The notes below the pieces were generated by a model, which worked only from the letters and a program-made list of their open reading frames with translations, ran no database searches and was not told where the DNA came from. Below are positions 21,332 through 54,522 of a DNA stretch of 64,000 nucleotides, one piece after another (positions within the stretch are counted from its first letter, which is position 1; every line of letters begins with the position of its first letter). The position numbers and the translations under genes are program-made. The stretch is taken from assembly GCA_016207165.1 (NCBI GenBank), contig JACQQD010000008.1:112386-176385 (forward strand). Direction: 5' to 3'. Source of the stretch: Candidatus Micrarchaeota archaeon. GTDB taxonomy: Archaea; Micrarchaeota; Micrarchaeia; Norongarragalinales; Norongarragalinaceae.

Positions 21332-22020
21332 GGCGTCTTCACGTAGGATAGGATGTCTTGCGGCTTTTTTAAGGTCGTCACGTCTTCGTCGGGAGTCGGC
21401 GGCAATCCGTAGCCCCACTCCGCAAAAAACAATCGGGCGCGGCCTTGCAGGCTTTTCAGGACGCGGGGCATGTCGTCGACGAACCACACGGTTTCTTCCT
21501 TGAGGCTTTCCACTTGCCGTTTTTTGAGTTCGTCGCTGGAGGCCGAGAAGCGGCTGGAGCCTACCACGCGGTCAAAGTAAGGGAACAATTGCTTGGCGGC
21601 GAGGTATTTTTTTAGGCTGGAGTCGTCGCGCGCCGAGACCACGGCCATGCGTGGGCCTTGGTTTTTGAGTTGTTTCAGGGTATCGATGATGCCGGGATAA
21701 ACGGGGTTGTGGGGGAACTGTTTTTCCAGAAGCAAGTCGCGGTGCTTGTGGTAGAGTTCGCGAAGCTCCAGAACGCCGTTTTTTCGCTCCAGGCCGACGC
21801 GGTGGAGGTTTTCGCGGGTGTACGGAACGTGTTGTTGCCGGGCGAAGTACTGGATGAAGAAGTCGGTGGCTTGCACCGCGGTTTTTCGTTCGACTCGGAA
21901 TTGTTTCAGGCTCAAGGGTTCAAGGCCGAATTCTTCCAGCGCCGCGTTGTAGCTGGCAAAGCATTCGTGGACGGTGTCCACCAAGACGCCGTCAAAATCC
22001 CAGGCTAAAAGCATTTGCAA
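21328..22020 (-). CDS. HAD-superfamily hydrolase
   Basis: DxDGVLVDT motif I (WDFDGVLVDT). 230 aa. Co-operonic with MVD/PMK/IDI2. Confidence 0.6.
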   Translation of the reverse strand: MQMLLAWDFDGVLVDTVHECFASYNAALEEFGLEPLSLKQFRVERKTAVQATDFFIQYFARQQHVPYTRENLHRVGLERKNGVLELRELYHKHRDLLLEKQFPHNPVYPGIIDTLKQLKNQGPRMAVVSARDDSSLKKYLAAKQLFPYFDRVVGSSRFSASSDELKKRQVESLKEETVWFVDDMPRVLKSLQGRARLFFAEWGYGLPPTPDEDVTTLKKPQDILSYVKTP

Positions 22021-22054
22021 AAACCCTTAAACCTTTGCGTACAGTTTTCCGTAA

Positions 22055-23101
22055 TTGGTTTGTGGGGGTTGGATTGTTTTTATGGTTCTGGTTTCCGCGT
22101 CGGCGCCAAGCAAGGTTCATTTGGCGGGCGAGCACAGCGTGGTGTACGGGGGTTGGGCGTTGGTGGCGCCGGTGGAAGTGGGTGGCAAACGCAACGCCGT
22201 TTCCCTGGAGAAACGCGGTGGCGGGTTTTGGTTTGGAGGCGACTTGGGTGCTGCTTGGCTTGAAGGCGGGGCCAAGAAGGGCGACGAAGTCTATCACCCC
22301 TTGTTGGACGTGGCCTTGCATGTGGCCGGCAAAACAGGCCGTAGCCTGGACGGATTGAAAGCCACGCTTTCTTGGGCCGGCGCCCCAAGGGGCACGGCGA
22401 ATTCCGCGTCGATTTCCGTGGCGTTGGCTTTGGCGTTGTTCAAGCACTTCGGGAAAAACCCAGGCCAATCCGAGTTGTACGACGCGGGGTTCGTGGGCGA
22501 CAACGCGTACCACGGCGGAAAGAGTTCGGGCGGCGACGTGGCCGCCGTTGTTTCCGATAAGGCCAAGAAGTTCCGGCGCGTGTTCAAGGACGGTGCCGTG
22601 GTGCCGGAGTCGTTGGACGTGGAACTTCACATGCCTCGCGGTACGCAGTTGGTGCTGGCTTCCACCCAAAAAGAAGGCCAGGAACGCTCCTCTACGGCCG
22701 CGCTCATCGAACAGTTTGCCAAGGCGCATGGCGTGTCCAAGAAGCCGGCGGAAATGTCGGATGCCGAACGCCATGCGCTGTTTGACGCGTTTGATGTCGT
22801 GGTGGAGAAAATCGCTTCCTTGTGCGGGAGGGACGCGTCGCCGGAGGCGTTGGGAGCGGCGTTGGATGAAAACCATTCCTTGTTGGAAAGCGTGTCCACG
22901 CCCGCCATTGACCAAACCCTTTCCGTGGCGAAGCAGGCGGGGGCGTTGGGTGGGAAACTCATTGGCGCCGGGGGCGCGGGTAGCGCGTTGATCGTCTTGG
23001 TGCCGGACGAGAAGCTGAAAACCGTCCAGTCGGCGGTGTCGGATCTTGGCTTTGAGTCGTGGCCCGTTGGCTTGGCGAAGCGCGGGCCGGCCTTGGATTA
23101 A
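22055..23101 (+). CDS. mvk: Mevalonate kinase
   Basis: SAPSKVHLAGEHSVVYG N-terminal motif and GGKLIGAGGAGS. Start could be 22082 (MVLVSASAP). Confidence 0.7.
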   Translation: MVCGGWIVFMVLVSASAPSKVHLAGEHSVVYGGWALVAPVEVGGKRNAVSLEKRGGGFWFGGDLGAAWLEGGAKKGDEVYHPLLDVALHVAGKTGRSLDGLKATLSWAGAPRGTANSASISVALALALFKHFGKNPGQSELYDAGFVGDNAYHGGKSSGGDVAAVVSDKAKKFRRVFKDGAVVPESLDVELHMPRGTQLVLASTQKEGQERSSTAALIEQFAKAHGVSKKPAEMSDAERHALFDAFDVVVEKIASLCGRDASPEALGAALDENHSLLESVSTPAIDQTLSVAKQAGALGGKLIGAGGAGSALIVLVPDEKLKTVQSAVSDLGFESWPVGLAKRGPALD

Positions 23102-23117
23102 CTTTTTTTGGGTTGGC

Positions 23118-23516
23118 TTAGTGAACGCGTTGAATGCGTTCGACGTGGTCAAAGTCCGAGTCAAACGAGAGGATTTCTCGGAGGCCTCGTTTGTTGGTGG
23201 CATGGACGCTGAGGGCGTCGGAGAGGCTGAATCGGCCGTATTTCTTCATCAGTTTGCCGGCGGCTTCCAGGTCTTGGACGCTTACAGATTCAATGGCGAT
23301 GTTTTTCGCGTTCAGAAATGCCTGCAGTCCTTCGTGGGCGGCTTGCGGCCCGTCCCGGCTGAAAAGATACGTTACGGCTTCTTCGATGACGTGCGTGGTG
23401 ACGACGAGGCGTTCATTGTCTTTGACGATGTCCTCGATGAGTTCTTTTGCTCGGTCATGATGGGCGTCGCTTTTCCGGAACAATGCGATGAAAAGCGATG
23501 CATCGGCGGTCTTCAT
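23118..23516 (-). CDS. vapC: VapC-like PIN-domain toxin
   Basis: 132 aa. PIN acidic residues. Immediately follows the small antitoxin-like gene. Confidence 0.65.
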   Translation of the reverse strand: MKTADASLFIALFRKSDAHHDRAKELIEDIVKDNERLVVTTHVIEEAVTYLFSRDGPQAAHEGLQAFLNAKNIAIESVSVQDLEAAGKLMKKYGRFSLSDALSVHATNKRGLREILSFDSDFDHVERIQRVH

Positions 23517-23795
23517 TTAATCCCCGTAAAGCACCTGATGTAGATCTTCCGCGGCATTGGAGGGCGGCCCGCTCTTGACGATGCCTGCAAAGTCCCTCAA
23601 GGTTTTTTTCTTTCCAGCGGTCAACCCCTGGTTTTCAAGGGTGAACGCCAATGCCTCCCCCACGACTTCCGCGTCGGAGACCTTGGCTTCCCGCTGAAGA
23701 ATCATTTTAGCCTTTAATTGATGCAGCTTGCGCATGACGGGCTCCGGCACGCGAAGTGAAACGAGGTGACCCAAGAGAAAACCACCACGAGTCAT
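23517..23795 (-). CDS. VapB-like antitoxin
   Basis: About 90 aa. Position immediately upstream of the PIN gene. Confidence 0.4.
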   Translation of the reverse strand: MTRGGFLLGHLVSLRVPEPVMRKLHQLKAKMILQREAKVSDAEVVGEALAFTLENQGLTAGKKKTLRDFAGIVKSGPPSNAAEDLHQVLYGD

Positions 23796-23811
23796 ATATT
23801 TTTTATACTTT

Positions 23812-24072
23812 TTATACTTTTTGGTATTTTTGACGCGCCGTTTTCAGGTCGTATCGTTTGCCGAAACCCGGTACCCGAACGGCTTTGGTCTTTCGGATTT
23901 TTTCCAGTTTTTTTAGGTATTCCGGCCGGATTTCCCGTTCCATGAGGGTTTGCCCGTATTCGGCCACCACGTAATTGAGTGCTTCGTCTTTCCGCTTGAA
24001 GCCATGCAAGGCCTTGACGACGTTCAACACGCGATCTGTTTTTTCATCCAAATGGACGACGGCTTGTTTCAT
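23812..24072 (-). CDS. Small antitoxin-like/hypothetical protein
   Basis: 86 aa, basic C-terminus. Confidence 0.3.
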   Translation of the reverse strand: MKQAVVHLDEKTDRVLNVVKALHGFKRKDEALNYVVAEYGQTLMEREIRPEYLKKLEKIRKTKAVRVPGFGKRYDLKTARQKYQKV

Positions 24073-24130
24073 GTTATTTCACGTAATCTCATTTTATTTC
24101 ATGTAATAAAACGGTTTCGGTGGCTGGTGG

Positions 24131-24562
24131 ATGGGGTGGTGGAACGGTTGTCGAAACGCGTTCCGCCGCTGGATAACGTTTATTTTAGCCAATGTCTTGA
24201 ATGGTTTCATGGACTGTGTCTTGTGTTCGGAGGTTCAGGCCGTCGTTGCTGCCGGCGACCATTACTGGGAGCCCCTGCCGGATTGCGTCAATGCGTTGGA
24301 TGTTTTCGGGTATTTCGGCGATGACTTGGATTGCGTTTATCTTAAGAAGTGTCCGGCGTGCAAGACGTATTTCGCGGAGTACCACGCGGACCATTTTGAG
24401 TCCGGTGGCGCGGTAAGCCAACGCATTGAAAAAATCGATGCCGAGAAAGCCCTCGAAATCATCAAGAAAGTGATGACGAAGGTTGAGGGTGCAGAGTGGC
24501 TTAAGTCTAAGTATTCGTTGGCCAAGCTGCAAAAAGAATTGAGGAGTTTAGAGAAGTCGTAG
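24131..24562 (+). CDS. Hypothetical protein with Cys-x2-Cys ... CPAC putative zinc ribbon
   Basis: Motifs CVLC and CPAC. True start may be MDCVLC at ~24206. Confidence 0.3.
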   Translation: MGWWNGCRNAFRRWITFILANVLNGFMDCVLCSEVQAVVAAGDHYWEPLPDCVNALDVFGYFGDDLDCVYLKKCPACKTYFAEYHADHFESGGAVSQRIEKIDAEKALEIIKKVMTKVEGAEWLKSKYSLAKLQKELRSLEKS

Positions 24563-24579
24563 CACACGTCGTGGTGGGT

Positions 24580-25845
24580 TTAACCGTCCAAGAGTTCTTT
24601 GGCGCGCTTTACGTTGACGTTTTTCTCTTTGGCCATGATGGCGGCGATGCGGTCAATGTCGTCGCCGGTTGCCCCGGCTTGCACGGCAATGTTGGCGGCG
24701 TGCAACTTCATGTGACCTTGCTGGATACCTGTCGTCGCCAAAGCGCGCATGGCCGCAAAGTTCTGCGCCAATCCAACGGATGCCAGGATTTCGCCGAGTT
24801 CTTTTGCGCTTGAAACCCCCAGAATCTTGAGGTTGGTTTTGGCCATGGGGTGGGTGCGCGTCGCGCCGCCGACGACTCCAACGGCCATGGGCAACTCGAT
24901 TTCTCCGGTCAAGTCGCCGTCCTTGGTTTTCCAGTATCGCGTGAGGGTAGTGTATTGGCCGGTTTTCATGGCGTACACGTGTCCGCCGGCTTCCATGGCG
25001 CGCCAGTCGTTGCCTGTCGCCAAAACGACGGCGTCCATGCCGTTGAAGATGCCTTTGTTGGCGGTGCAGGCGCGGTACGCGTCGTTGGCGGCGAAGGCGT
25101 AGGCGTCAAGCATCGCTTCCACGATGGCTTCTCCGTTGAAAGCGCCTTTGGTGCTTTCCGCAAGGGCTTCTTTCGTCCAAGTGGCATGCGCTTTGGCGGT
25201 GCGGTGCACGGCCAAATTCGAGAGGATGCGGAGGCGGGCTTTGGCGCCGGTGATTTGCTCGATTTTGGGGCTGATGGCTTCGCACATGGTGTTCACGGCG
25301 TTGGCGCCCATGGCGTCCTGGACGTTGACCAGCAAATGCAAGATGAGCATGTCGCCGCGGCTGGTTTTAATCACCCGGCTTTCCAGGTCCACGGCTCCAC
25401 CGCCGCGGGAGACCATGACGGGGTCTTTTTCGTTGGCGGTTTCAAGCAATTCGCCCTTGTGTTTTTTGACGGCGGCTTGGGCTTTACGGAAATCCGGGAC
25501 GTGCACCAACTGGATTTGGCCGATCATGATGGGTTGCGTGGTGGATGCCGTGAATCCTTTTGGGAGGCACAATTTGGCGGCGTGGCTGGCGGCCGCCACT
25601 ACCGAGGGCTCTTCGACGACCATGGGGACGAGGCGTTCTTTGCCGTTGACTTTGAAGTGGTCGGCGATTCCCAACGGCAAAGGGTAGGCGCCCACCACGT
25701 TTTCGATCATGCGGTTGGCCGTGGATTCGTCCAATCCCCCAAACGTCTTGAGGCGCGCGAGGTCCTCGGCGTCCAATTTCGCCAGTGTGGCGACTTCCTC
25801 GGCGCGTTCTTGGGGTGACTTGTTCCTAAACTCTTTGGAGAGCAT
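24580..25845 (-). CDS. hmgA: HMG-CoA reductase, class I
   Basis: 421 aa. ENVVGAYPLPLGIA and GGATRTHPMA motifs. Confidence 0.85.
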   Translation of the reverse strand: MLSKEFRNKSPQERAEEVATLAKLDAEDLARLKTFGGLDESTANRMIENVVGAYPLPLGIADHFKVNGKERLVPMVVEEPSVVAAASHAAKLCLPKGFTASTTQPIMIGQIQLVHVPDFRKAQAAVKKHKGELLETANEKDPVMVSRGGGAVDLESRVIKTSRGDMLILHLLVNVQDAMGANAVNTMCEAISPKIEQITGAKARLRILSNLAVHRTAKAHATWTKEALAESTKGAFNGEAIVEAMLDAYAFAANDAYRACTANKGIFNGMDAVVLATGNDWRAMEAGGHVYAMKTGQYTTLTRYWKTKDGDLTGEIELPMAVGVVGGATRTHPMAKTNLKILGVSSAKELGEILASVGLAQNFAAMRALATTGIQQGHMKLHAANIAVQAGATGDDIDRIAAIMAKEKNVNVKRAKELLDG

Positions 25846-25954
25846 GAAACCGTATTGGAGTCCTGGGGTTTCAAAAGGCTGCCGGGTGTTGGGCGATTGA
25901 CGAAGGGTCTACGGGTTTTTATACGCGGATTGTCCAGAAAACGCTTGAACTGAA

Positions 25955-26001
25955 TTACAGTAAACCACGAATGTTTCCCGACAAAATAGTCGTGGTTTAC
26001 T
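25955..26001 (+). promoter_or_regulatory. Palindrome cagtaaaccacga-N19-tcgtggtttactg containing conserved motif 2 (CCCGACAAAATAGTCG)
   Basis: 13 bp perfect arms. Motif 2 recurs at 37647-37664 in the same orientation relative to the downstream gene. Confidence 0.5.
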
Positions 26002-26033
26002 GTCTAGCAAACTCCGCCTATTCGTCGTGAAAT
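26000..26033 (+). promoter_or_regulatory. Conserved intergenic motif 1, copy upstream of HMG-CoA synthase. A TTGCTATA box lies ~20 nt before the ATG.
   Basis: Matches the reverse complement of 15691-15725. Confidence 0.5.
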
Positions 26034-26069
26034 TTGCGGGGTTTGCTATACTGGAAGGTTTATTGTTCA

Positions 26070-27107
26070 ATGGCAGGCATCATCGGCTACGGCGTCTCCA
26101 TTCCGCGCTTCCGCATCAAGACCGAGGAAATCGCGCGGGTGTGGGGCAAAAACGGGGCGCACATCACCTCGGGTTTGGGCGTCAAAGAGAAAGCCGTAGC
26201 CAGCATCGACGAGGACTCCGCTACTCTGGCGGTGGAGGCCTCCCGGCGGGCCGTCCTTATGGCGGGCATTGACCCGCAGAAAATTGGCGCGGTGTACGTG
26301 GGCTCGGAATCCAAGCCGTATGCCGTCAAGCCCACGGCGTCCATTGTCGCGGATGCGTTGATGGCTGGACCGGACCTCATGGCCGCCGACTATGAATTTG
26401 CGTGCAAGGCGGGAACGGCTGGAATGCAGAACTGCCTGGGTTTGGTGTTAAGTGGAATGGTGGACGTGGGACTGGCGGTAGGCGCCGACACCGCTCAGGG
26501 AAGGCCGGGGGATGCATTGGAGTTTTCGGCGGCCTCCGGCGGCGCCGCGTTTTTGGTGGGGTCCAAAAACGTGATCGCGGAAATCAATTGCACGTACTCG
26601 TTCACCACGGACACGCCGGACTTTTGGCGGCGCCAACACGCCGAGTTTCCGCAGCACGCCGGAAGGTTTACCGGCGAGCCCGCGTATTTTCGTCACGTGG
26701 TTTCCGGGGCCAAGGGCGTGATGAAAAAGGCGAAGACGAAACCCGAGGACTACCAGCATGCCGTGTTTCACCAGCCCAACGGGAAATTCCCTGAACGCGC
26801 GGGCCACATGCTGGGCTTTTCCAAGGAACAACTCCAAACCGGCTTGGTCACGCCGTCCATTGGCAACACGTATTCCGGCGCGTCCTTGATTGGCTTGGCG
26901 GCGGTGTTGGATGAAGCCAAACCCGGCGACCGCATCTTGTGCGTGTCGTATGGTTCGGGGGCGGGAAGCGACGGGTTTGACATCACGGTAACGCCGGAAA
27001 TCAAGAACAAAAAGCCGGTGGTGTCCGTCAAGCAGTTGGTGGCGGATAAGCAGTACATCGATTACGGGCTGTACGTCAAGCACCGGAGAAAACTCAAGAG
27101 TTTGTGA
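26070..27107 (+). CDS. hmgB: HMG-CoA synthase (archaeal type)
   Basis: Start at [12 protein letters not shown]. Length, sequence and operon context with thiolase and DUF35. Confidence 0.8.
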
Positions 27108-28279
27108 GATTGATGCGATCCGTTTCCGTTATTGGCGTGGGGCAAACCAAGTTCGGCGAGCACTGGAACGATTCGCTTAGGGACTTGGTTACCGACGCGG
27201 GCGTGGCCGCCATTTCCGATGCGAACGTGGAAGGAAAGGACGTTCAAGCCGTTTTCGGCGGCTGCATGGCCGCCGGCCGCTTCATCGGCCAGGAGCACAT
27301 CGGCGCGCTGTTGGCCGACCAAATGGGGTTGAACCCACTGCCGGCTGTACGCGTCGAGGCGGCGTGCGCGTCCGGCGGCGTGGCGCTTCGCATGGGGTAC
27401 TTGGCTGTTGCTTCCGGCATGTACGACGTGGTGGCGGTGGCGGGTGTAGAGAAGATGACGGATGTGTCCACCGAGGACGCCGCCGTGGCGTTGGCGGGCG
27501 CCGGCGACCAGGAGTGGGAGTTGTTCAATGGCGCGACGTTTCCCGCGATTTACGCGTTGATGGCGCAGCGCCACATGCTTGATTTTGGGACGACGGAGGA
27601 GCAGATGGCGTTGTGTGCGGTCAAGAACCACGGCCATGCCGTGTCCAACCCGTATGCCCAGTTTCGTAAAGCCGTTTCCTTGGAGCAAGTCATGGATTCG
27701 GGGTACATTGCTTCTCCCCTCAAGTTGTTGGATTGCTCGCCGCTGACCGACGGCGCCGCCGCGTTGGTGTTGTGTGCATCCGAAAAAGCCAGTAAATTCA
27801 CGGACAAGCCCGTGGACGTCATGGCTTCAACCCAGGCTTCCGACACGCTGGCTCTCCACGAACGCGAGACGCTGACGGGGTTGAAGGCCACGCAGGTGGC
27901 CGGCAGGGACGCCTTCAAGCAAGCCGGCATTTCGCAGAAAGACGTGGATGTTTTGGAGTGCCATGACTGTTTCTCCATCGCGCAAATCATGGCGTTGGAG
28001 GACTTGGGTTTCTGCAGGAAGGGAACCGGCGGGAAATTCGTGGAAGAAGGCCGTTCGGACAAAGACGGCGAGATTCCGACGAATTTGTCCGGTGGGTTGA
28101 AAGCCGTCGGCCACCCGGTGGGCGCGTCGGGGGTTCGGGAAGCCATTGACGTGGTCCGGCAGTTGCGTGGCGACGCGCCGAAGGAAGTCCAATTGAAGGA
28201 TGCAAAAATCGGTGTGTCGCACAACGTGGGCGGTTCCGGTGCCACGGTGGTCGTTCACGCATTCAAGAGAGGATTTTGA
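27104..28279 (+). CDS. Acetoacetyl-CoA thiolase (archaeal)
   Basis: [16 protein letters not shown]-terminus and thiolase Cys regions. 4 nt overlap with the HMGCS gene. Confidence 0.8.
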
Positions 28280-33267: not shown

Positions 33268-34389
33268 TCAGTCTTTTTGGAGTTTGAGGACGTCGACTTT
33301 CCTGCCGTTCTCGAATTGGCGGAGTTTTCGGCGCGTGTGTCCGGGGTTGGGGTATCTTTTTTCGAGTTGTTTTCGCCGTTCCTGGAGTTGTCGGACGCGG
33401 TCGTCGCCTAAGGCGTTGGCCCCAATTTCAAGGGCGTTGTGGATTTGCTCCAATTCGTCCAAGTCGAGGTGGACTTCCATGTATTTTTCGTATTCGCGGC
33501 GGTCGTTGGCCAACCGGTTTTGCAGTTCCAGCCACTCGTCTTCTTTCCCTGGTTCCGGGGGCTCGTCGGCCAGCCGCGCCGTGCTTTGTTTGAAATAGGA
33601 GAACAGCCGTTCATGGCGTTCTTCGGGAGTTGCGGGAGCCTTTTGAGTTCGGGATGTCGCGGGAAGCGTTTTTTCAAGGACGTGCCAGACGCGTCCGCCG
33701 GTGGCCCTGGAAAGCATGCGATCGCCCCACAAGCGCAGGGCGTCTTGTTCGGTGCGGGGTCGCTTGGGCTGGGAAACCAATTCGCGCAAGGCGTCCAGCA
33801 TCCGCAGCGTGATGGCCAGTCCCTGGAAGTTCTTCTCGATTTTCTGGCTTTCCTTGTGCAGGTGCTCCATGTTTTCTCGAATCTGTTCTTGGGTCAGCAA
33901 GCCGTCGTCGGGGCGCGGGTGCCGGACTAAATTCTTGGCTTTATAGAACAAGGGGTAGCGTTGCCTGCCGAGTTTTTCGTGCCACCTTCGCCGTACCAGC
34001 GTGCGGGCGGGTAAAAACAGGCCGCTGGCCGCGGAGTAGAAGAACATGTGTTCGGGGTCTCCCACGGCGTGCGAGAAGGCCGCTCCCAAAGCCGAGGCGT
34101 GAAGCACGTCGCTGAGTTTTACGGATTCGGCTTTTCCGGTGTCCGTGGGGATGGGCAGCGGGTTTTCGCCGCGGACGATGGACAGCCGCGTTTCCGGGTT
34201 CGCGACGATGGCTTTCAGCGCCAGGTGGACGTAGTATTCTTGTTCGACGTCGCGGATGCGGCTTTCCACGATTTTTCGGGCCCGATTCGCATCCCAGTCT
34301 TTCAGGCGCAACGCGTATTCCTTGAGCATCTGGTTGGAAATGGTCCGGAAGCGGGAGGGCAAAGGCGAGCGGAAGGGTTTTTCACGCAT
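33268..34389 (-). CDS. Hypothetical protein
   Basis: 373 aa, no recognisable motif. Confidence 0.4.
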   Translation of the reverse strand: MREKPFRSPLPSRFRTISNQMLKEYALRLKDWDANRARKIVESRIRDVEQEYYVHLALKAIVANPETRLSIVRGENPLPIPTDTGKAESVKLSDVLHASALGAAFSHAVGDPEHMFFYSAASGLFLPARTLVRRRWHEKLGRQRYPLFYKAKNLVRHPRPDDGLLTQEQIRENMEHLHKESQKIEKNFQGLAITLRMLDALRELVSQPKRPRTEQDALRLWGDRMLSRATGGRVWHVLEKTLPATSRTQKAPATPEERHERLFSYFKQSTARLADEPPEPGKEDEWLELQNRLANDRREYEKYMEVHLDLDELEQIHNALEIGANALGDDRVRQLQERRKQLEKRYPNPGHTRRKLRQFENGRKVDVLKLQKD

Positions 34390-34542
34390 ATGGCTTTCCT
34401 GGTGTTCCCTCCAATATTAGGCTTTTTTCTGGGGTCAAACCCAAGAAATAAAAGCCACCGCGGCAAAAATTTTTTCACGTTTCTTGGGCGGTGAAGCCGT
34501 TTATTGGTACGCGGCCCAATTGGTTTTCGAGGGATTTACTTT

Positions 34543-35493
34543 ATGGACTTTGATTTTGACGTGTTGATTGTCGGCGCGGGCGCCGCGGGCTTGACGGCGG
34601 CTTTGTACACGTGCCGGAAAAACCTCAAGACGGCCATCGTCTCCATTGACGTGGGGGGGCAGACGAATTTGACGTCCAACATCGAGAACTATCCTGGGGT
34701 TGAACCCATGCATGGCGCGGTTTTGATGCAGAAGTTCCTCAAGCAAGCGCAGGGCGTGGGCGCCCAACTGATTTCCGGCAAAGTCGGCAGGATTGAAAAA
34801 ATCGAGAACGGTTTTCGCGTCAACCTCAAGGACGGCCAAGCGTTTACGTCCAAATGCGTGCTGTTGGCTTTTGGCAAAGTCCCGCGCACCCTGGGCATTC
34901 CTGGGGAGGACCACTTTTTTGGGAAAGGCGTGTCGACTTGCGTCACGTGCGACGGGCCCCTGTTTCGGGGTAAGGACGTCGTGGTGGTGGGCGGCGGCAA
35001 TTCCGCCATTGAAGGCGCTTTGGAACTGGCGGAAATCGCGAACAAGGTTTATTTGGTGCACCGCCGGGACGCGTTTAGGGCGGACGAAATCACGGTGCAG
35101 AAGCTGAAGTCCCACAAGAACATGGAGTTGGTCTTGAATTCGGCGGCGGTGGAAGTCAGAGGCCAAAAATTCATTGACACGGTGGTCGTTCAAGACGTCA
35201 ACACCAAGGCCACGCGCGACTTGGCCGTCAAAGGCATGTTTTTGGAGATTGGCTTCATCATGGACATTTCCATGCTGGAGGGGTTGAACGTGAACGTCAA
35301 CGCCAAGAAGGAGATCTTATCGGATTCCGTGACGTGCCACACCAACGTTCCTGGATTGTTTGCCGCCGGGGACTGCACGGCGATTCCTTTCAAGCAGACC
35401 GTCATTTCGGCGGGCGAGGGCGCCAAGGCGGCGTTGGAAATCCATCGTCACATGACTGGAGCGAAAGGCATTGCCCTGGATTGGGACCATTAA
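34543..35493 (+). CDS. trxB: Thioredoxin-disulfide reductase
   Basis: FAD motif VLIVGAGAAGLTAALY, CVTC redox-active disulfide, and NAD(P) motif VVVGGGNSA. Confidence 0.8.
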   Translation: MDFDFDVLIVGAGAAGLTAALYTCRKNLKTAIVSIDVGGQTNLTSNIENYPGVEPMHGAVLMQKFLKQAQGVGAQLISGKVGRIEKIENGFRVNLKDGQAFTSKCVLLAFGKVPRTLGIPGEDHFFGKGVSTCVTCDGPLFRGKDVVVVGGGNSAIEGALELAEIANKVYLVHRRDAFRADEITVQKLKSHKNMELVLNSAAVEVRGQKFIDTVVVQDVNTKATRDLAVKGMFLEIGFIMDISMLEGLNVNVNAKKEILSDSVTCHTNVPGLFAAGDCTAIPFKQTVISAGEGAKAALEIHRHMTGAKGIALDWDH

Positions 35494-37310
35494 GCGGCTT
35501 CGTGGTGCAGGGCTTTTGGCAGTAAAAGCGTCAGGGCGGCGTCTTTTCCGTGATCCAGTTCCCGTGCCATGTGTTCCAACACCGTTCGCGGGTCGTCCTT
35601 ATCGGTACGGAGGTTTCGCCAGTGCCGGCGCCAGCCTTTACCCAGTTTGAGTTGGACGGCGTTTTCCTGCAGTTCTTGCGCGGTCAGGTTGACGCCGGAA
35701 CGCCTTGTCAATTCTGTTGCCAGAAATTCGTAGGCCTGTTCCCTGCTTTGGGGGAGCTTGGGCACCGGTAAACTTGCCGCTTTAGCTCCGGCGAGGTCCT
35801 TGTACTGGCTTTGCAGGCGCTCCCGTTCGCTCTGACCGGAAATGCCGAGGCTGTACAGCAGCTTGTTGAGGTTGTGCCATGTATCGGCTTTTGCGCCGGG
35901 ACCCTTGGGCGGTTTTCTCACCCGGTTTCCAAGAGAGTCAATCCACCAGTCTTTGTCTTCGAGGATCAGGTTGCCGGTGTTGTTGACCACGGCTTTGGCG
36001 ACGTGTTGCGCAAAGCCGTCCAGTCTGTCTTGGGTGAAGTGGGGGTCCACCTGGGCTTTGCGGCGAAGCAATAGTTCGGTGACTTTGATGAAGTCGTAGC
36101 CGGCGTTGGGGTGGTGTTCATGGACTTGGGCAAGCGGGACGCCCAATTCGGCGGCCACGGCTTTTTGGGCGGCGGCTTGGAACGCGTTGGTGGGCGGCGC
36201 TGGCGTTTTTGCGGGGGCCGGGCCGGGCGTCAACGTGATTTGAGGCGGCTTGCCGCCGGTGGTGTGCGTGAACAGTGGCGTCGGGGCTTCAGCCCCGGTC
36301 GCGACTGCGGCTGGCGTGGGCTTGGCAAAAGATTGTTCGATTTGGTCCGCGATGAAGCCAGGGGTTTTCAGCGCACCCAGCATGATGACGGCGCCGATGG
36401 CGGCGGCTTTGGCTCGTTCTTTCCAGAGAAACGGCGCCGGTTTTTCCGCGAAGCGTCGCATGGCTGTGTGTTTGTCTTTTCGGCGCAAAAGCTTGAGTTC
36501 CTCGATGCCGTGGAGCATCTGGCGCGGGGTGGCGGTGGCTTTGGAAAGGATGTCGTTCGTCATTTGGGCAGGAAAGTGCGAGAGCATGTATTCCCTCACC
36601 AAAAACTCGTTCACGTCGCCTTGGACGCGCCGCAGTTCTTGTTTGTACTCGTCCAAGGCGGCGCCTTTGACTTCAGGACTCCAGTTCGGCTCGGCGCGTA
36701 TGGCGTGGCTCAGCTTGTTTTGTGCGGTGTCGCCTTGCTCGGCGGCTTTCAGGTGTCCTTGAGCGACGTGGAGTTGTTGTTCCAGGAGGCGTTTCATCTC
36801 GTCGGGATGAACGTCGCTGGGTAATCTCCATTCCCGGTTGCCTACGCGGATGAAGTTGCCTCCCAGAAGCACTAGCGGGTCTTTTCTTCCGCTGATTCTC
36901 CTCTGGCGCTCCATGAAGGCGCTGAGCCTTGCCAGAAATCCGCGGAACATGAAGTTCGGTCCCAAGTCTCGGAATTGGTGCTGCAAGCGATTTTCGATGT
37001 CGGCGTCAACTTTTTCTTGGAGCTCAGCTTCAAGCGCTCGCGTTTTTTCCTCGAATTCCAGGAGTTTCGGGTTGGTGCGCCGCAATGCGTTTTCATGTTC
37101 TCTTTCGACCGCCGGCGCGTACCCGTCGCCCAGCATGGTTTGAACCCGGGTTTGGATTTCTTCGTGAAGGGCGCGTTCTTCGTGGGCGCTCAGCCGTGTT
37201 TTGATGCCTAAGACGGCGGGAGTCCACGTCTGCTCTCCCGCCCATCGCATGAGTTTCCTAGCGTGGTTTCGGAATGCTTCCAGGAACGTCATTTTTTCTT
37301 CCTCGGCCAC
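35490..37310 (-). CDS. Hypothetical bitopic membrane protein (606 aa). Cytoplasmic coiled-coil N-domain, one TM, Pro/Ala-rich linker, extracytoplasmic C-domain.
   Basis: TM AAAIGAVIMLGALK. Linker PTPAAVATGAEAPTP..PAPAKTPAPP. Confidence 0.45.
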   Translation of the reverse strand: MAEEEKMTFLEAFRNHARKLMRWAGEQTWTPAVLGIKTRLSAHEERALHEEIQTRVQTMLGDGYAPAVEREHENALRRTNPKLLEFEEKTRALEAELQEKVDADIENRLQHQFRDLGPNFMFRGFLARLSAFMERQRRISGRKDPLVLLGGNFIRVGNREWRLPSDVHPDEMKRLLEQQLHVAQGHLKAAEQGDTAQNKLSHAIRAEPNWSPEVKGAALDEYKQELRRVQGDVNEFLVREYMLSHFPAQMTNDILSKATATPRQMLHGIEELKLLRRKDKHTAMRRFAEKPAPFLWKERAKAAAIGAVIMLGALKTPGFIADQIEQSFAKPTPAAVATGAEAPTPLFTHTTGGKPPQITLTPGPAPAKTPAPPTNAFQAAAQKAVAAELGVPLAQVHEHHPNAGYDFIKVTELLLRRKAQVDPHFTQDRLDGFAQHVAKAVVNNTGNLILEDKDWWIDSLGNRVRKPPKGPGAKADTWHNLNKLLYSLGISGQSERERLQSQYKDLAGAKAASLPVPKLPQSREQAYEFLATELTRRSGVNLTAQELQENAVQLKLGKGWRRHWRNLRTDKDDPRTVLEHMARELDHGKDAALTLLLPKALHHEAA

Positions 37311-37606
37311 CGGCTAGCGATTTCATCGGATTGGGCAATCAATTGCCTGACTTCGTTTTGGAGTCTTATCACTTCCTTTTCTTGCTCTACTTGGGCCTGG
37401 ACACTCGTTTTTGCCAACTCCATCATGCGGCGGATTTCAAGGCCTGTATGGTCGTTTCCCGCTTGTTTGCGGATGTCTTGGCACACGGCTTCTGCGATTT
37501 GTCGAGCCGTTTCAGGATGGATGTGGTGTCTTTCGGGCAATTTTTTCTCGAGGAATGCCTGCAGGCCCGTCAGGCTTGCTTCCAACCGTTGCCTCGTTGT
37601 TTCCAT
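37289..37606 (-). CDS. Small coiled-coil protein (105 aa)
   Basis: Charged heptad-like sequence. Overlaps the downstream 606-aa gene. Confidence 0.4.
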   Translation of the reverse strand: METTRQRLEASLTGLQAFLEKKLPERHHIHPETARQIAEAVCQDIRKQAGNDHTGLEIRRMMELAKTSVQAQVEQEKEVIRLQNEVRQLIAQSDEIASRWPRKKK

Positions 37607-37630
37607 GATAGCAGATATTTAGGGAAACGA

Positions 37631-37689
37631 CTTTTTTATAGCAATCCCCGACTATTTTGTCGGGTCACTTTCTTGGTTTGCTGTATTGA
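37631..37689 (-). promoter_or_regulatory. Promoter region of the 105-aa/606-aa operon: motif 3, motif 2 and a GCTATAAAAAA box
   Basis: Motif 3 ACTTTCTTGGTTTGCTGTATTGA at 37667-37689 is identical to 15807-15829. Motif 2 cccgactattttgtcggg at 37647-37664. TATA-like box ~30 nt before the ATG at 37606. Confidence 0.5.
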
Positions 37690-37704
37690 CTTTCGTTTTT
37701 TTCC

Positions 37705-39465
37705 TTATTTTTTGGGTGTGCGCGGGCTTTTGGTTCGCGTGCGGCCGAGTTCGTCTTCGTAGGTGGACGCGCTTCCGTCTTGTTTCCAGCCGCCTTGGGA
37801 TACCGGGATTTCCTTCATGCGTTGGTGGTAGCGTTGCATCACGGTTTGGACGTCGGCGTCTTTCCATAGTCCGCCGCCGTCCATGCCCCAGGGAACGGCC
37901 CAATTCCAGCTTTTCAGGATGGCGCGCAGGTTTTGGTCGACGTCGGCTTTCGTCTTGTTCTCGTCCAGCCACGTGATGGATCCGTCTTTGACGCCTTGGT
38001 CGCGGGCCAAGAGGATTTTGGTGTGCCAGTTTCGGCCCCATAACTTCAAGTCGCCGACGTGGAGCGCCTTTTCTTTCTCGGCTTTGCGTTCCATGAGCAC
38101 TTCCAAGAGGATGCGGTCGTTGACGCCGGTGTTCTTGTCCGTGACGTTGGCCTGGCCTTTTTTGGCCGCGGATTGGAAGGCGTCCACGATTTGGTTGGCG
38201 TACTGGGCAAACAGGCTTGGTTCCGGGGGTGGCGTGGGTCCGCCGCCCGTTACTTCAGGCGCCGGAGTCTTGGGCGACGGCGTTTTCGGCGAATCGGGGG
38301 CTGTGGGTGAAGGCGTGACGGCGACTGAAGTTGGCGTCGCGCTTCTCCGGATGGCTGGCGGCTCGGCTTGTTGGGCGAAGTATTGTTCGGTTGCTGGCGC
38401 CACGACTTTGGGCCCGCTTACGCCCGCCAGCATGGTGGCCATGACGCCGACGGCCGCCCAGTTTTGAGCTTTGGCGGATTGGGAGAGTCTTTTGACCCAG
38501 GATTCGGCTTGCCCTGGGGTTTGGATGCCTTGCAGGGCCTTGTCCACGCCTTGCTCTTCGATGATGTGGACGATGAACGCGTGGTTGATGTCTCTGCGCA
38601 ATGCCAAGTTTTCGGCCAGGTCGTATCCGTAGCGCGAGCCGATGTGGTGTTTGAACAAAAGCTCCGCGATTTTGCGTTCGGCGTGTCCGCGGCCAAAGAG
38701 GCCTTGGACTTGGAACATGTCGCTCAGGTGCTGGGGTCCTCCGCCTTGTTTGTAAAACACTTTTCCGAGTGCGCGCTTCGTTTTGCCCCAGCCTTGCTTG
38801 ACGCCGTGCTTGAATTTGTTCAAGCGTCCTTCGGCAGGCAGGGCTTCTTGGGGTGCGGGTTCTGGGTGTTCTGAGAACTGTTCGAGAGCGGCTTGGTATT
38901 GGGCCAGCATTTGTTGGGGTGCGGCGTCGCGGTCCCATTCCAGGTTGCCGATGGTGGGGTGGTTTCCGCCGGTCAGTTCGTGCACGTCGTCGAGGTATTG
39001 TTGAAAGCTGAAGTGTTGTCCGAGGCCGAATCGGGCTCGGAATCTCTCGGATAAGTCGTCTTCGACGAATTGCTTGAGGCGGCGCGCGGTGGCTTGTTCT
39101 TGGGATTGTTTGCGTTGGGGGTGGCGTTCTTCTTCGCGTTCATGGCGGGCTTGCAGGCGAGCCGCTTTTTTCAAGATTTCTTGGACGGCGGATTCCAATT
39201 CGGCGTCGGCGTTGGCCACTCCCCGGGCGGTGGCCTCGGTGACGGCGTCATAGAAGTCTCGAGTCGTGTGGTCCTTGACTTCTCTTTCGATGGCGGCCTG
39301 GTACCTTTCCGCCAAGCCGTCCAGGGCGTGTTCGGTTTGCAGTCGAGCAAAGTCGTGGGCGGCTTCCCGGCTGGCGGAAAACTCGCCGAAGAATCTGGGC
39401 CAGTTGATGTTTTTGAGGTTTTCCCGGAACCGGTTCACGCTTTCCCGAATTTTTCGTAGGATCAT
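37705..39465 (-). CDS. Hypothetical bitopic membrane protein (586 aa), same architecture as 35490..37310
   Basis: TM NWAAVGVMATMLAGV. Linker PTSVAVTPSPTAPDSPKTPSPKTPAPE. Confidence 0.45.
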   Translation of the reverse strand: MILRKIRESVNRFRENLKNINWPRFFGEFSASREAAHDFARLQTEHALDGLAERYQAAIEREVKDHTTRDFYDAVTEATARGVANADAELESAVQEILKKAARLQARHEREEERHPQRKQSQEQATARRLKQFVEDDLSERFRARFGLGQHFSFQQYLDDVHELTGGNHPTIGNLEWDRDAAPQQMLAQYQAALEQFSEHPEPAPQEALPAEGRLNKFKHGVKQGWGKTKRALGKVFYKQGGGPQHLSDMFQVQGLFGRGHAERKIAELLFKHHIGSRYGYDLAENLALRRDINHAFIVHIIEEQGVDKALQGIQTPGQAESWVKRLSQSAKAQNWAAVGVMATMLAGVSGPKVVAPATEQYFAQQAEPPAIRRSATPTSVAVTPSPTAPDSPKTPSPKTPAPEVTGGGPTPPPEPSLFAQYANQIVDAFQSAAKKGQANVTDKNTGVNDRILLEVLMERKAEKEKALHVGDLKLWGRNWHTKILLARDQGVKDGSITWLDENKTKADVDQNLRAILKSWNWAVPWGMDGGGLWKDADVQTVMQRYHQRMKEIPVSQGGWKQDGSASTYEDELGRTRTKSPRTPKK

Positions 39466-40052
39466 GGTTTGGACTCCTGATGTCGGTCGTGCAACGCTTT
39501 TGCCGCGAGCATGACTTCTTTTTCATCTGCGGTAAGTTCTTCCAGCTCTTGTTTCCGGCGTCGTTCCGCTTTGGCCCATTCCCGGATTATCGCTTTGAGT
39601 CCTTCAGCGGTTCCACGCAGTTTTTGGCGTCGGGCGTATTCGGCGTCGTCCTCCGCATTTTTCACTCCTTGTTCGGCTTGGGCGAGGTGTTCCCGGATGC
39701 GGGTTTCGGCTTCTTCTCGATGTTCTTCCACTTGCTGCATGACGTGCTTCACAGCGGCCTGCGTCATTGGAGTAATGTGTTCTTCTTCCACTCCGGCTTT
39801 TCGGAGGGCGGCTTCGACTTCGGTCCACACGTGTTCGCCGTTTTCGCCGAAGATGTCTTCCAAGTGGCGGGCCGCAGCGGTTTGCAGTTGTCCGAACCGG
39901 TTGAAGTGGATGCCTTGCACGTCTGCGAAGGCGACGCGCATGCCGATGCGTCGCTGGAGCGTGAGCAGTTTTCTTCGGTTTTTCAACAGTTTTTCTCGGG
40001 TTAGCGCGTTGTCCAAGTCTTGGGGTGTTGTGCGGCGTCGTTCTTCTGGCAT
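39462..40052 (-). CDS. Coiled-coil protein (196 aa), basic N-terminus and acidic C-terminus
   Basis: 4 nt overlap with the downstream 586-aa gene. Confidence 0.4.
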   Translation of the reverse strand: MPEERRRTTPQDLDNALTREKLLKNRRKLLTLQRRIGMRVAFADVQGIHFNRFGQLQTAAARHLEDIFGENGEHVWTEVEAALRKAGVEEEHITPMTQAAVKHVMQQVEEHREEAETRIREHLAQAEQGVKNAEDDAEYARRQKLRGTAEGLKAIIREWAKAERRRKQELEELTADEKEVMLAAKALHDRHQESKP

Positions 40053-40099
40053 TGAAGTGTCTTAGGCATTTTTAGACTTAAAAAGGTGGCTTGTAGGTT

Positions 40100-40582
40100 T
40101 TAGAACAAGCGGTGGCTGTCGTCTTTGAGGAAGTCTTGGACTTCTTCCTCTTCTTGGCCTTGCGGGCTGGTCTGAGGCATGGAGAACATGTCCATGCCGC
40201 CGCCGGTGGCTGGAGGTGGAGTGGGTGGGGCGTGTTCCAGGGCCTCCAAAAGCGCGCGGTCCAAGTCGTTTTTGAGTTGCTGGTCCAAGACGTTGATGTC
40301 TTCTATAACCAGAAATACGTATTTGCCTTCCGCGATTTCCACGTCGGCGATCTTGTCTCTTAAGAAACTCATTTCGTGTTCGTTGTCGGATTCCGTGGTC
40401 ACTACGGCTACAATGGCGTCGACTTGTCGGCCGAAGAGCTTCTTGCAGGCGGCGGGAACCTTGAAGGGGTTGGGGCACGTGAATTTCTCGATTTGGACGT
40501 CGGCCTGCAAGTCGGCCAATTCGCTGAAAGCGGGGTAGGCGTCTTTGGAGTTGGTTTTGCAGTCAAGAAACCCGATGCGCAT
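40100..40582 (-). CDS. Archaeal-type riboflavin synthase-like (lumazine synthase fold) with a low-complexity C-terminal tail
   Basis: MRIGFLDCKTN..PAACKKLF..DAIVAVV resembles MJ1184-type RibC (PVACKKLL). Confidence 0.45.
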   Translation of the reverse strand: MRIGFLDCKTNSKDAYPAFSELADLQADVQIEKFTCPNPFKVPAACKKLFGRQVDAIVAVVTTESDNEHEMSFLRDKIADVEIAEGKYVFLVIEDINVLDQQLKNDLDRALLEALEHAPPTPPPATGGGMDMFSMPQTSPQGQEEEEVQDFLKDDSHRLF

Positions 40583-51392: not shown

Positions 51393-51500
51393 GCGGCTGT
51401 GGTCTAATGGTTTGCTTCCTGGTTTCAAGATTCAAACCGGATATTGGCATGATTCGAGCTTCCCAAGCTCGCTGCGCGGGTTCGATTCCCGCCAGCCGCA
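51393..51500 (+). tRNA. tRNA-Gly(CCC) with a ~36 nt non-canonical intron in the D-arm
   Basis: Acceptor stem GCGGCTG/CAGCCGC with A73. T-arm GCGGG-TTCGATT-CCCGC. Anticodon arm CGAGC-TTCCCAA-GCTCG. 55 nt lie between the acceptor and anticodon stems. A model with a 3 bp D-stem and an intron after position 21 gives a 72 nt mature tRNA. C2:G71 and G3:C70 fit Gly. Confidence 0.5.
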
Positions 51501-51612
51501 TTCAGTCCAGGTCTGTGTGCGCAATTGGTCAGATTGTGCCGTATTGCGCAAGAATATGCAGAATACGGCACTATTTAACCTCAGGCCTGTTTGGCCATTG
51601 ACGAGCGGGTCT
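51490..51612 (+). repeat. att core (CGCCAGCCGCATTCA) plus conserved ~110 nt arm, copy 1
   Basis: About 80% identical to 53779-53897. Confidence 0.7.
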
Positions 51613-51686
51613 TCGTTCAAAATTGGATCAAGTGCATAGCGTTGTTCCCGCGTTTCTCTTGAAAATGACGGCGCGTTTGATATTAT

Positions 51687-52715
51687 TTAATGTTGGGCGG
51701 GTACTTTTTCAACATGCCAGAGTTGCCGTTGAGGGTCAAACCGTGCTCGAAACAAAGACTGCATGACTTCCGCATCCACTCCAAGGGAGTCTAAATGAGG
51801 ACGAAAGTGTTGAATCATCGCTTCTCGCAAGGAAGGATCCATCAGGTGTTCTTTGAGGGAAGCGTGGTTCGCGCCCCATACCATTCCAATGGTTGGTTTT
51901 TTACCGCGCTCTTTGGCGACGGTTTCCGCAACGATCTCTTCCAATTTTTTCGCACCCATCGCATTTCGGAACTCGGATGCGGCCGTTGGAAAGAAGCTTC
52001 CAGAGTACCAAGCTAACGCGCGTCGGGCAATTTCCCTTCGACGGATTTCACCCGGCCAAGAGACGGCATGAAGCAACGCTTGAAACGGAGGCAAAAAGGC
52101 GTAAGAAAAGGCGGCTGCGCCAGCTTTCAAACCTACTTTTTTTCCCAATCCTAAAAATGCCCGACGCGAAAGGGTGGCCGAATCCCTGATTTCTTGAGCT
52201 CTTTTAAGACGCGCTTCAAGCTTTTTGAGTTTATTTGATCGTGATTTTCCTTGTTGGGCTAATTCCGTTTTATGGGCCTGAATTTCGCCCTCGATTAGTT
52301 TTTGTGCGGCTTCTTGTTGACCTCTGGCCTTTTTCTTCTCGAGTATTTCTAGCAGGTCAAGCAAGGCAGATCCGCCTAGTAGCATCCCGATAATTCTTCC
52401 CGGTCCGGGCCTGTATTTGAGCCGAAGGTTCACGTCCTCCCGATTCAAGTCAAAATCCCCTAACCAGACTTCCGCTCCACCTTGAGCCGCTTTGGCCAAA
52501 AGCATCCGCAACTTTCTGTCTCCGGCGTTTAGAGTCGCTTTGCTGTTCATCACCCGTCCAAGGTATTCCGCATCGTCTTTTTTTGTCAACGGATAATCGA
52601 AAAACAGAGCGTCCATGTGCTGCGGATCGAGGTCCGACCAGTCCTCTTGATGGGATTCCAATTCTAGTGCGTAATGCGCCTTAGGTGTTTCAAAGCGGAG
52701 GTATCCCATATGCAA
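51687..52715 (-). CDS. Hypothetical protein (342 aa)
   Basis: No confident motif. Lies in cassette B1. Confidence 0.4.
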   Translation of the reverse strand: MHMGYLRFETPKAHYALELESHQEDWSDLDPQHMDALFFDYPLTKKDDAEYLGRVMNSKATLNAGDRKLRMLLAKAAQGGAEVWLGDFDLNREDVNLRLKYRPGPGRIIGMLLGGSALLDLLEILEKKKARGQQEAAQKLIEGEIQAHKTELAQQGKSRSNKLKKLEARLKRAQEIRDSATLSRRAFLGLGKKVGLKAGAAAFSYAFLPPFQALLHAVSWPGEIRRREIARRALAWYSGSFFPTAASEFRNAMGAKKLEEIVAETVAKERGKKPTIGMVWGANHASLKEHLMDPSLREAMIQHFRPHLDSLGVDAEVMQSLFRARFDPQRQLWHVEKVPAQH

Positions 52716-52805
52716 TCTCTGAACTTCTTTTCTTTAAAACAATTTGACCTCCGCTTTTCGGCCGTCAATAGTCCTTTCGATCCACATTTCAAATGTTTGA
52801 CCTAT

Positions 52806-52905
52806 GTCTTGAAGAACTTCTCATGCGTCTCCTTGAGGCGCGCATAAAGGAAATTCTCAAGCGTAATGGTTCGTCCGTTGTCTGAATCTTCCAGGGCCGA
52901 AAAAT
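52806..52905 (-). pseudogene. 3'-terminal fragment of a Fic-family gene
   Basis: Encodes YFSALEDSDNGRTITLENFLYARLKETHEKFFKT-stop. About 85% nt identity to 54535-54655 (C-terminus of the intact Fic gene). Homology ends abruptly upstream. Confidence 0.6.
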
Positions 52906-54519: not shown

Positions 54520-54522
54520 TAA

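Follow-up and report, generated by a model that had tools for sequence, protein, structure and literature searches.

Dependence on contact with other cells is assumed for archaea of the DPANN group, Micrarchaeota included, yet hardly any of the proteins on their surface is understood. For this group, diverse surface structures and an accelerated diversification of ligand-binding proteins have been documented, and surface proteins diversified by diversity-generating retroelements (DGR) have been reported (reviewed in PMC6349945). Here we describe a locus in a 64,000-nt stretch of DNA from a Candidatus Micrarchaeota archaeon (assembly GCA_016207165.1, contig JACQQD010000008.1, positions 112,386 to 176,385; hereafter, the window). 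It consists of four minus-strand open reading frames (ORFs), denoted g196, g586, g105 and g606, that lie next to the thioredoxin-reductase-like gene trxB. A preliminary description, based on the letters of the window, had viewed them as a single operon alternating coiled-coil and bitopic membrane proteins and as a candidate envelope or membrane-remodelling system. We tentatively favour a different reading, namely that these genes are tandem paralogous cassettes of a fast-diversifying, modular, clade-restricted locus beside trxB that encodes membrane-anchored surface proteins.

Two tandem gene pairs beside trxB

Translation of the window confirmed the four genes at their previously assigned positions (Table 1), the NCBI annotation includes identical hypothetical proteins (HY572_04465, HY572_04475 and HY572_04480, from a groundwater Candidatus Micrarchaeota metagenome-assembled genome, MAG), and an independent gene call on a Logan contig yielded the same genes, with products of 196, 586, 105 and 600 aa. 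Furthermore, a codon-usage model trained on 13 annotated genes of the window (the HMG-CoA synthase gene entered one base out of frame, which affects <10 % of the training codons) scored the annotated frame best for all four ORFs, the weakest coding signal being that of g105 (0.15 bits per codon, compared with 0.32–0.45 for the other three).

The overlap of stop and start codons that had been ascribed to all four genes holds within two pairs. The stop of g196 and the start of g586 overlap in an ATGA, and so do the stop of g105 and the start of g606 if the latter is placed at ATG 37292, as in the NCBI call, whereas g586 and g105 are 98 nt apart. Because of this spacer and of the separate AT-rich box ahead of g196, the cluster is best described as two tandem two-gene pairs, each with a promoter-like box at leaderless-mRNA spacing. 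For g196, the box is a putative promoter judging from the archaeal TATA spacing; for g105, the box TATAAAAAA is located ~26 nt before the ATG. The 98-nt spacer contains no oligo-T run after the g586 stop, and read-through from one pair to the other is possible. The conserved element previously attributed to the operon promoter is indeed present but sits in the g586/g105 spacer, so that the motif-bearing promoter is internal to the cluster and not at its head. This organization supports translational coupling of each of the large genes, g586 and g606, to a small gene for a helical protein. At the other end of the cluster, the TAA stop codons of trxB and g606, on opposite strands, share the palindrome TTAA (35490-35493), with zero intergenic room left for terminators. 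The GC content of the cluster is that of the surrounding genome, and the flanks include the archaeal genes for NMD3 and DUF2070. Next to g196, at 40100-40582 (-), there is an ORF of 160 aa with a Pro-rich acidic tail and a sub-threshold similarity to lumazine synthase/archaeal riboflavin synthase (E 0.0045); the 47 nt between this ORF and g196 hold the TATA-like box.

The two large proteins are distant full-length paralogs (23 % identity, BLASTP E 3e-7 to 8e-7, shuffle z 9–20). Both display the bitopic layout of the preliminary description, with a helical N-terminal part of ~300–335 aa, a single Ala/Gly-rich hydrophobic segment, a Pro/Thr/Ala-rich stretch of 45–60 aa, and a C-terminal domain of 170–240 aa.

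A clade-restricted family anchored at trxB

A word-seeded search of 5.8 billion protein clusters, of a kind that misses distant homologs, returned self matches only for g606 and g196. An exhaustive hmmsearch of 1.84 billion (1.84e9) representative proteins with a profile built from g586 and g606 retrieved four proteins, the two queries themselves along with P0003 (E 4e-10; a 315-aa fragment from a JGI metagenome) and P0004 (E 5e-7; 507 aa, from an NCBI metagenome assembly). g586 aligns with P0004 over the membrane span and on to the end of the C-domain (34 % identity, E 7e-28), and with P0003 over the juxtamembrane N-terminal region and the span (E 7e-13). In the short contigs that encode P0003 and P0004 (L003 and L002, respectively), the 3' end of trxB is located just downstream of the family gene, in the same tail-to-tail orientation as g606 and trxB in the window. 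The P0004 gene is preceded by 163 nt without an overlapping small ORF, and its product has a 240-aa coiled-coil N-domain of its own.

A synteny scan anchored on the clade-specific C-terminus of TrxB returned 59 loci, the closest two of which, L005 and L006, come from groundwater Micrarchaeota MAGs with TrxB proteins 69 % and 67 % identical to that of the window. Each of these loci carries exactly one gene convergent to trxB, coding for proteins of 475 and 445 aa (L005_475 and L006_445) that consist of a helical N-domain, an Ala/Gly-rich span and a helical C-domain; neither locus has a Pro/Thr stalk, a small partner gene or a second copy. The four-gene unit proposed earlier is therefore not conserved in these two, which are the related genomes with sufficient context. 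The upstream neighbour in both loci is a divergently transcribed gene for a CAP-domain secreted protein, beyond which lie genes for S-adenosylhomocysteine hydrolase and V-ATPase subunits, unlike in the window. In the more distant Micrarchaeota L010 and L060, the family gene is absent after trxB and unrelated genes are found there.

L005_475 is related to P0004 through the N-domain (Smith-Waterman z 12–20) and L006_445 is related to L005_475 (z 8–10); direct profile comparison of these two proteins with those of the window was not significant (hhalign E 0.15–0.37 in the case of L006_445). We define the family as g586, g606, P0003, P0004, L005_475 and L006_445. The alignment of the six proteins, A6, is colinear, and the C-domain opens with a shared motif of the form x[ND]xG[VI][ND]...L..LM. 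In the window, L002, L003, L005 and L006 alike, a family gene is convergent to trxB, with g586 representing a second, trxB-distal copy; trxB is thus the conserved anchor of a variable locus in all five genomes. Additional scans recovered only the P0004 contig among metagenome contigs, no match among genome contigs when anchored on the DUF2070 neighbour, and no relative among the IMG/VR viral contigs.

Modularity and turnover downstream of trxB

Domain-wise comparison showed that the N-domains fall into two types, A (g586, g606 and P0003) and B (P0004 and L005_475). The C-domain type, in contrast, is common to g586 and P0004 (Smith-Waterman z=26.5), so that P0004, with its type B N-domain, is a mosaic. 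At the nucleotide level, the final 414 nt of trxB in L003 (type A) and L005 (type B) show 91.8 % identity, which falls to random level (35–40 %) right after the trxB stop codon. The other side of trxB provides a benchmark, namely g373 (33268-34389, minus strand), a charged helical orphan of 373 aa without a Pfam family that is divergent from trxB. The positional ortholog of g373 in L006 (8012-9145, minus strand) retains 32 % identity (E 3e-63), which identifies it as a conserved clade-specific gene, whereas the family members are not detectable directly. Finally, in L006 and L003, and probably in L002, the intact trxB stop is followed at a short distance by a direct duplicate of ~100 nt of the gene's 3' end, with the conserved sequence CCCGGGGCGACCAAGT in front of the duplicate. 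This arrangement looks like a footprint of integration or recombination at the trxB 3' end; the window has no such duplicate. With ~65 nt between them, the two trxB repeats of L006 do not enclose the family gene. Collectively, the mosaic domain composition, the break at the trxB stop, the comparison with g373 and the 3' duplicates suggest that the position downstream of trxB is a variable, recombination-prone locus occupied by a fast-diversifying family.

The same break and duplicates, together with the differences in copy number and gene content between genomes and the hairpin repeats at the junctions (see below), could also be accounted for if the genes were carried by a mobile or defence-type island for which the trxB 3' end serves as an integration or recombination hot spot, for example as virus-exclusion genes or as remnants of an integrated element. 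We consider this rather improbable because a Pfam scan of the window ORFs of at least ~150 aa revealed no integrase, transposase or viral hallmark gene, PADLOC and PHROGs gave insignificant matches only, IMG/VR contained no relative, and the cluster has native GC content; moreover, the window lacks the trxB 3' duplicate and the L006 family gene lies outside the two repeats.

Architecture and predicted topology of the large proteins

The AlphaFold model of g586, obtained from a four-row alignment, is all-alpha and has a low mean predicted local distance difference test score (pLDDT 46), with long helices at residues 31–146, a helix at 317–341 over the hydrophobic segment, a disordered linker at 342–417 and a C-domain with pLDDT up to 78. 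On a Hessa-type hydrophobicity scale, the summed dG over 19 aa is 4.6 for the g606 segment and 6.7 for that of g586, with a soluble neighbour reaching 7.8, whereas the homologous segments of P0003 and L005_475 are clearly hydrophobic (1.2 and 2.7). In each of the six family proteins, the segment is the dG minimum. Given the contrast between the marginal segments of g586 and P0004 and the clear ones of P0003 and L005_475, membrane insertion of the large proteins is likely but not certain. The single transmembrane (TM) helix that the preliminary description assigned to each large protein gains support from the Lys/Arg bias on the N-side and from the Pro/Thr stalk that follows the segment, but the segments themselves are only moderately hydrophobic. 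Lys and Arg are in excess on the N-side in five of the six family members, the exception being L005_475 (3 vs 4); in g586, there are three such residues on the N-side and none on the C-side. This enrichment favours an N-in/C-out orientation, and the large proteins are plausibly membrane-anchored with this topology. Packing between helices is suggested by a small-xxx-small pattern that is conserved in the span.

Searches of Pfam, NCBIfam, PHROGs and PADLOC with the four proteins and their relatives yielded only sub-threshold, coiled-coil or low-complexity matches, for example, to EzrA, phasin, GltJ (E 0.09), ZorA, AbiEii, and a PHROG annotated as virion structural protein that matched the Pro/Thr linker. 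The EzrA match is on g196, a protein without a TM segment, and scores 15.5 bits against a cut-off of 39.6 (E 0.006). For the large proteins, Pfam and NCBIfam gave no match to HTH_25, ZipA_C, TonB_C or the EzrA profile. PDB sequence searches produced nothing significant for g586, g606, g105 or the six-member profile, and for g196 only an insignificant match (E=0.1). Foldseek comparison with PDB gave zero matches for the g196 model and only noise (E>2.7) for the low-confidence g586 model. The earlier statement that the proteins are uncharacterized and contain no recognizable catalytic motif is supported.

A hairpin-forming repeat in the spacer

The g586/g105 spacer contains a conserved 47-nt stretch that is one of a family of hairpin-forming intergenic repeats. 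Full copies occur ahead of a GT4 glycosyltransferase gene and in the interval that separates the HMG-CoA reductase gene from that for HMG-CoA synthase. The full copies fold as two hairpins with ~13-bp stems (folding z -8.3 and -7.7), and the spacer copy is a shortened hybrid (z -2.2). The stems show compensatory differences between copies (TAGCAAACTCCGC/GCGGGGTTTGCTA versus TAGCAAGACCGGC/GCCGGTCTTGCTA), the loop CCTATTCGTCGTGAAAT is conserved, and at all three places the 3' stem arm leads into the box TTGCTATA ~20–30 nt before an ATG, that of HMG-CoA synthase, of a small ORF ahead of the GT4 glycosyltransferase, and of g105, respectively. Similar sequences were noticed by eye in the trxB-downstream spacers of L003 and L005, and no Rfam family matches the repeat. 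It could be an operator that ties g105-g606 to lipid and glycan synthesis genes; equally, it could be akin to repetitive extragenic palindromic (REP) elements, as its occurrence in the trxB-downstream spacers of relatives may indicate; it could also be a small RNA. Integron attC sites have the consensus RYYYAAC/GTTRRRY, to which the stem bases of the hairpins, TAGCAA/TTGCTA, do not conform; as an integrase is also absent, an attC-like nature was rejected. The HMG-CoA synthase gene, which starts at ATG 26070 and not at the upstream TTG 26034, is part of a mevalonate-pathway cluster (18152-28279) that also encodes an IDI2-like (flavin mononucleotide-dependent) isomerase, a GHMP kinase, an MVD-like decarboxylase, HMG-CoA reductase and a thiolase.

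The presence of this element at the HMG-CoA synthase and GT4 promoters hints at co-regulation with lipid and envelope synthesis and would agree with a role of the large proteins as housekeeping bitopic scaffolds of the RodZ/ZipA/EzrA/TonB type that link a cytoplasmic cytoskeletal or division partner to the envelope by way of a proline-rich spacer. The layout fits as well, in that a helical domain in the cytoplasm is joined by one TM segment and a Pro-rich linker to a small domain outside, and the weak EzrA and GltJ matches point the same way. Nevertheless, we give this possibility little credence, given that housekeeping scaffolds are conserved, whereas the present family is mosaic, occurs in a handful of genomes, is apparently absent from most Micrarchaeota, diverges faster than the neighbouring orphan g373, and varies in copy number and in the presence of the linker. 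Furthermore, all the matches are far under the family cut-offs, and the shared element is the very hairpin repeat that, as discussed above, may be REP-like and not an operator.

The small proteins

Both g196 and g105 had been labelled coiled-coil proteins, a label that we regard as unproven because the crude heptad score is below threshold for either protein. The predicted basic N-terminus of g196 was recovered in residues 21–40 (+8), but its C-terminal part is of mixed charge and not plainly acidic as suggested. The single-sequence AlphaFold model of g196 (pLDDT 67, predicted template modelling score 0.31) comprises helices at residues 10–44, 49–68, 70–85 and 95–194; the last of these, 100 residues long, has a pLDDT of 72–92, and the remainder of this weak model is poorly defined, with no confident hairpin. 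There is no similarity between g196 and g105. For g105, which was not run through any large homolog search, profile libraries and PDB sequences contained no match. An origin of the small genes by fission or fusion was considered and rejected since neither protein is significantly similar to the coiled-coil N-domains of P0004 or L005_475 (z<=3.4). Likewise, the alignment of g196 residues 49–105 with myoglobin (E=0.1) leaves the proximal histidine unaligned and was treated as a chance match.

These properties raise the question of whether g196 and g105 are partner proteins at all; they could instead be of young or de novo origin, or be leader-type ORFs needed only for translating the gene that follows. 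The lack of a g196 homolog in the word-seeded search and of a profile or PDB match for g105, the absence of a small partner gene from the locus in the relatives, the weak codon signal of g105, and the fact that the two small proteins are unrelated although the downstream genes are paralogous would all be expected in this case. Yet both genes are called by NCBI and Logan and score best in the annotated frame, ATGA coupling is typical of real gene pairs, and the 100-aa helix of g196 is predicted confidently, which makes such an origin quite unlikely in our view.

The conserved two-layer envelope or membrane-remodelling complex of the preliminary description, in which the small proteins would polymerize in the manner of ESCRT-III, PspA or Vipp1 on membrane partners, draws on the charged, helical character of the small proteins, the basic N-terminal block and long helix of g196, and the translational coupling to genes for membrane-associated proteins, but is highly improbable because hmmscan against Pfam-A listed neither Snf7 (PF03357) nor PspA_IM30 (PF04012) for g196 or g105 even at E<=1, NCBIfam was also blank, PDB contained no sequence relative, the single-sequence g196 model, although too weak to exclude the fold, shows one 100-aa helix instead of a helical hairpin core and has no Foldseek match, g196 and g105 are not alike, the genes form two pairs and not one chain, neither L005 nor L006 has the four-gene unit, a small gene overlapping the start of the P0004 gene is likewise missing, and no Vps4- or PspF-type ATPase adjoins the cluster.

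A putative locus of surface proteins

We return to the tentative reading of the cluster as tandem cassettes for membrane-anchored surface proteins. The observations behind it are the gene structure, the paralogy of g586 and g606, the restricted distribution of the family, the synteny with trxB, the module shuffling, and the break at the trxB stop. In each cassette, the gene for a soluble small helical protein is coupled in translation, through the ATGA overlap, to that for a protein of ~600 aa. The topology, surface exposure, partner binding and biological role are inferred: in the large protein, a cytoplasmic helical N-domain would be followed by an Ala/Gly-rich span with small-xxx-small motifs, a Pro/Thr-rich stalk and an outer helical head. 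The large proteins would be anchored in the membrane and act at the cell interface with hosts, viruses or the environment, and the head and stalk would be under diversifying pressure. The cytoplasmic domain might oligomerise and, in this genome only, dock the small helical partner made along with it; here, the locus is duplicated, with each copy coupled to a small helical ORFan.

Several points weigh against this scenario. The AlphaFold models are of low confidence, that of g586 in particular, and the segments of g586 and P0004 are only marginally hydrophobic, so that some members may not be inserted into the membrane. Homologs of the small partners were not detected, and a role for them is suggested purely by the gene overlap. 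L006_445, the most weakly attached member of the family, is linked to the window proteins only transitively, via L005_475. The sample consists of five genomes, three of which are represented by contigs of <=11.8 kb, and part of the differences between strains could be explained by differential loss of tandem paralogs instead of recombinational replacement. Finally, the function is deduced from architecture, evolutionary behaviour and DPANN biology.

A bolder version of the scenario, which we consider unlikely, is that the stretch downstream of trxB is a dedicated diversification locus, where N-modules, spans and stalk/head modules are swapped, duplicated and re-paired by recombination, with the trxB 3' end and the hairpin repeats as the recombination substrates. 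Were this the case, the locus would provide ultra-small archaea with strain-specific surfaces for host contact or virus evasion without a DGR. Rapid module turnover between near-identical strains, if real, would give concrete, testable access to host range or virus evasion in a lineage that has not been cultivated; if, on the other hand, these are merely lineage-specific orphan membrane proteins, they are ordinary, since every DPANN genome contains a large proportion of genes of this kind. Either way, the notion of a conserved membrane-remodelling system should not be carried forward.

Table 1 Features of the trxB-adjacent cluster, of the hairpin repeat and of the trxB 3' duplicates (window positions, except where another locus is named)
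Feature	Position	Strand	Description
g196	39462-40052	-	196 aa; soluble, highly charged, all-helical ORFan
g586	37705-39465	-	586 aa; type A N-domain; C-domain close to that of P0004
g105	37289-37606	-	105 aa; charged helical ORFan
g606	35490-37292	-	600 aa from ATG 37292; 606 aa from GTG 37310 (35490-37310)
trxB	34504-35493	+	Thioredoxin-reductase-like; convergent to g606
Putative promoter of pair 1	40068-40085	-	AT-rich TATA-like box cttttttaagtctaaaaat; 16-33 nt upstream of g196 ATG
Spacer between pairs	37607-37704	-	98 nt; shortened hairpin repeat (37631-37689) and TATA-like box
TATA-like box TTGCTATAAAAAA	37632-37644	-	At 3' end of shortened repeat, ~26 nt before g105 ATG
g586 hydrophobic segment AAVGVMATMLAGVSGPKVV	38401-38457	-	aa 337-355; Ala/Gly-rich; putative weak TM helix
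g586 Pro/Thr/Ala-rich linker	38215-38400	-	aa 356-417; predicted disordered
g586 C-terminal helical domain	37708-38214	-	aa 418-586; probably extracellular
g606 hydrophobic segment AAAIGAVIMLGALKTPGFI	36351-36407	-	aa 302-320; putative TM helix
g606 Pro/Thr/Ala-rich linker	36216-36350	-	aa 321-365
Hairpin repeat copy	15610-15835	-	
Hairpin repeat copy	25950-26052	+	
Hairpin repeat copy	37631-37689	-	
trxB 3' duplicate, L006	10303-10396 vs 10465-10561		
trxB 3' duplicate, L003	~1049-1150		
trxB 3' duplicate, L002	1796-1897		

Other features of the window

In addition to the trxB-adjacent cluster, the window contains several regions of interest. The region 51393-56000 has the appearance of one or two elements integrated next to a tRNA gene: the 108-nt tRNA gene is at 51393-51500, GC content falls to 0.47–0.50 beside it (52–56 kb), several pairs of direct repeats are present (51486-51605/53775-53894, 52785-52908/54524-54647 and 53687-53793/55556-55661), and a Fic/DOC-domain protein is encoded at 54523-55476. 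An ORF of 1860 aa (7193-12775, plus strand), in which PP2C phosphatase and FHA domains are confined to the C-terminal end, is directly preceded by an ORF of 586 aa without a family match (5429-7189, plus strand). A gene for an AbiEii-type nucleotidyltransferase toxin (12906-13655, minus strand) and an upstream ORF of 188 aa without a Pfam match (region 12906-14214) possibly constitute a type IV toxin-antitoxin pair. Three occurrences of a 105-nt repeat, spaced by ~1050 nt (579-683, 1625-1729 and 2703-2807; 73–82 % identity), suggest that there are tandem paralogous genes at the left end of the window.

Comparison with known systems

The window genes resemble those of ESCRT-III, PspA and Vipp1 (IM30) systems in that small, charged, all-helical soluble proteins, one of them with a basic N-terminal block, are encoded beside membrane proteins. 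Unlike the components of those systems, however, g196 and g105 have no profile match and are not conserved beyond one genome, and the weak single-sequence model of g196 has no structural match and shows no confident hairpin core. Among the neighbours (trxB, the lumazine-synthase-like ORF, NMD3, DUF2070 and glycosyltransferases), there is no AAA ATPase, hence no counterpart of the ATPase or regulator partners Vps4/CdvC, CdvA or PspF/PspBC.

With RodZ, ZipA, TonB and EzrA, the large proteins share a single span, an extended proline-rich spacer and a small terminal domain, and the combination of a cytoplasmic N-domain with an outer C-domain is RodZ-like. The g586 family nevertheless differs from these proteins in having no helix-turn-helix, FtsZ-binding or TonB C-terminal domain and in being clade-restricted and hypervariable instead of broadly conserved.

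The similarity to archaeal integrative elements with tRNA-type att sites consists in the break at the stop of a conserved gene and in the short direct duplicates of its 3' end in relatives. Here, however, it is a protein gene, trxB, that is targeted, an integrase is lacking, and the duplicates flank only ~65–240 nt and not the family gene.

Variable surface-protein loci offer another parallel: the g586 family is apparently directed to the surface, diverges extremely between close relatives, changes in copy number and shuffles modules, and the organism is an ultra-small, probably symbiotic DPANN archaeon. The locus is not a DGR, given that the scanned window ORFs include no reverse transcriptase, no template repeat pair involves the C-domains, and the C-domain is predicted to be all-helical and not a C-type lectin or Ig-like fold. 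In contrast to DGR-mediated diversification, the variation observed here looks like replacement of whole modules or turnover of paralogs at a fixed site next to trxB.

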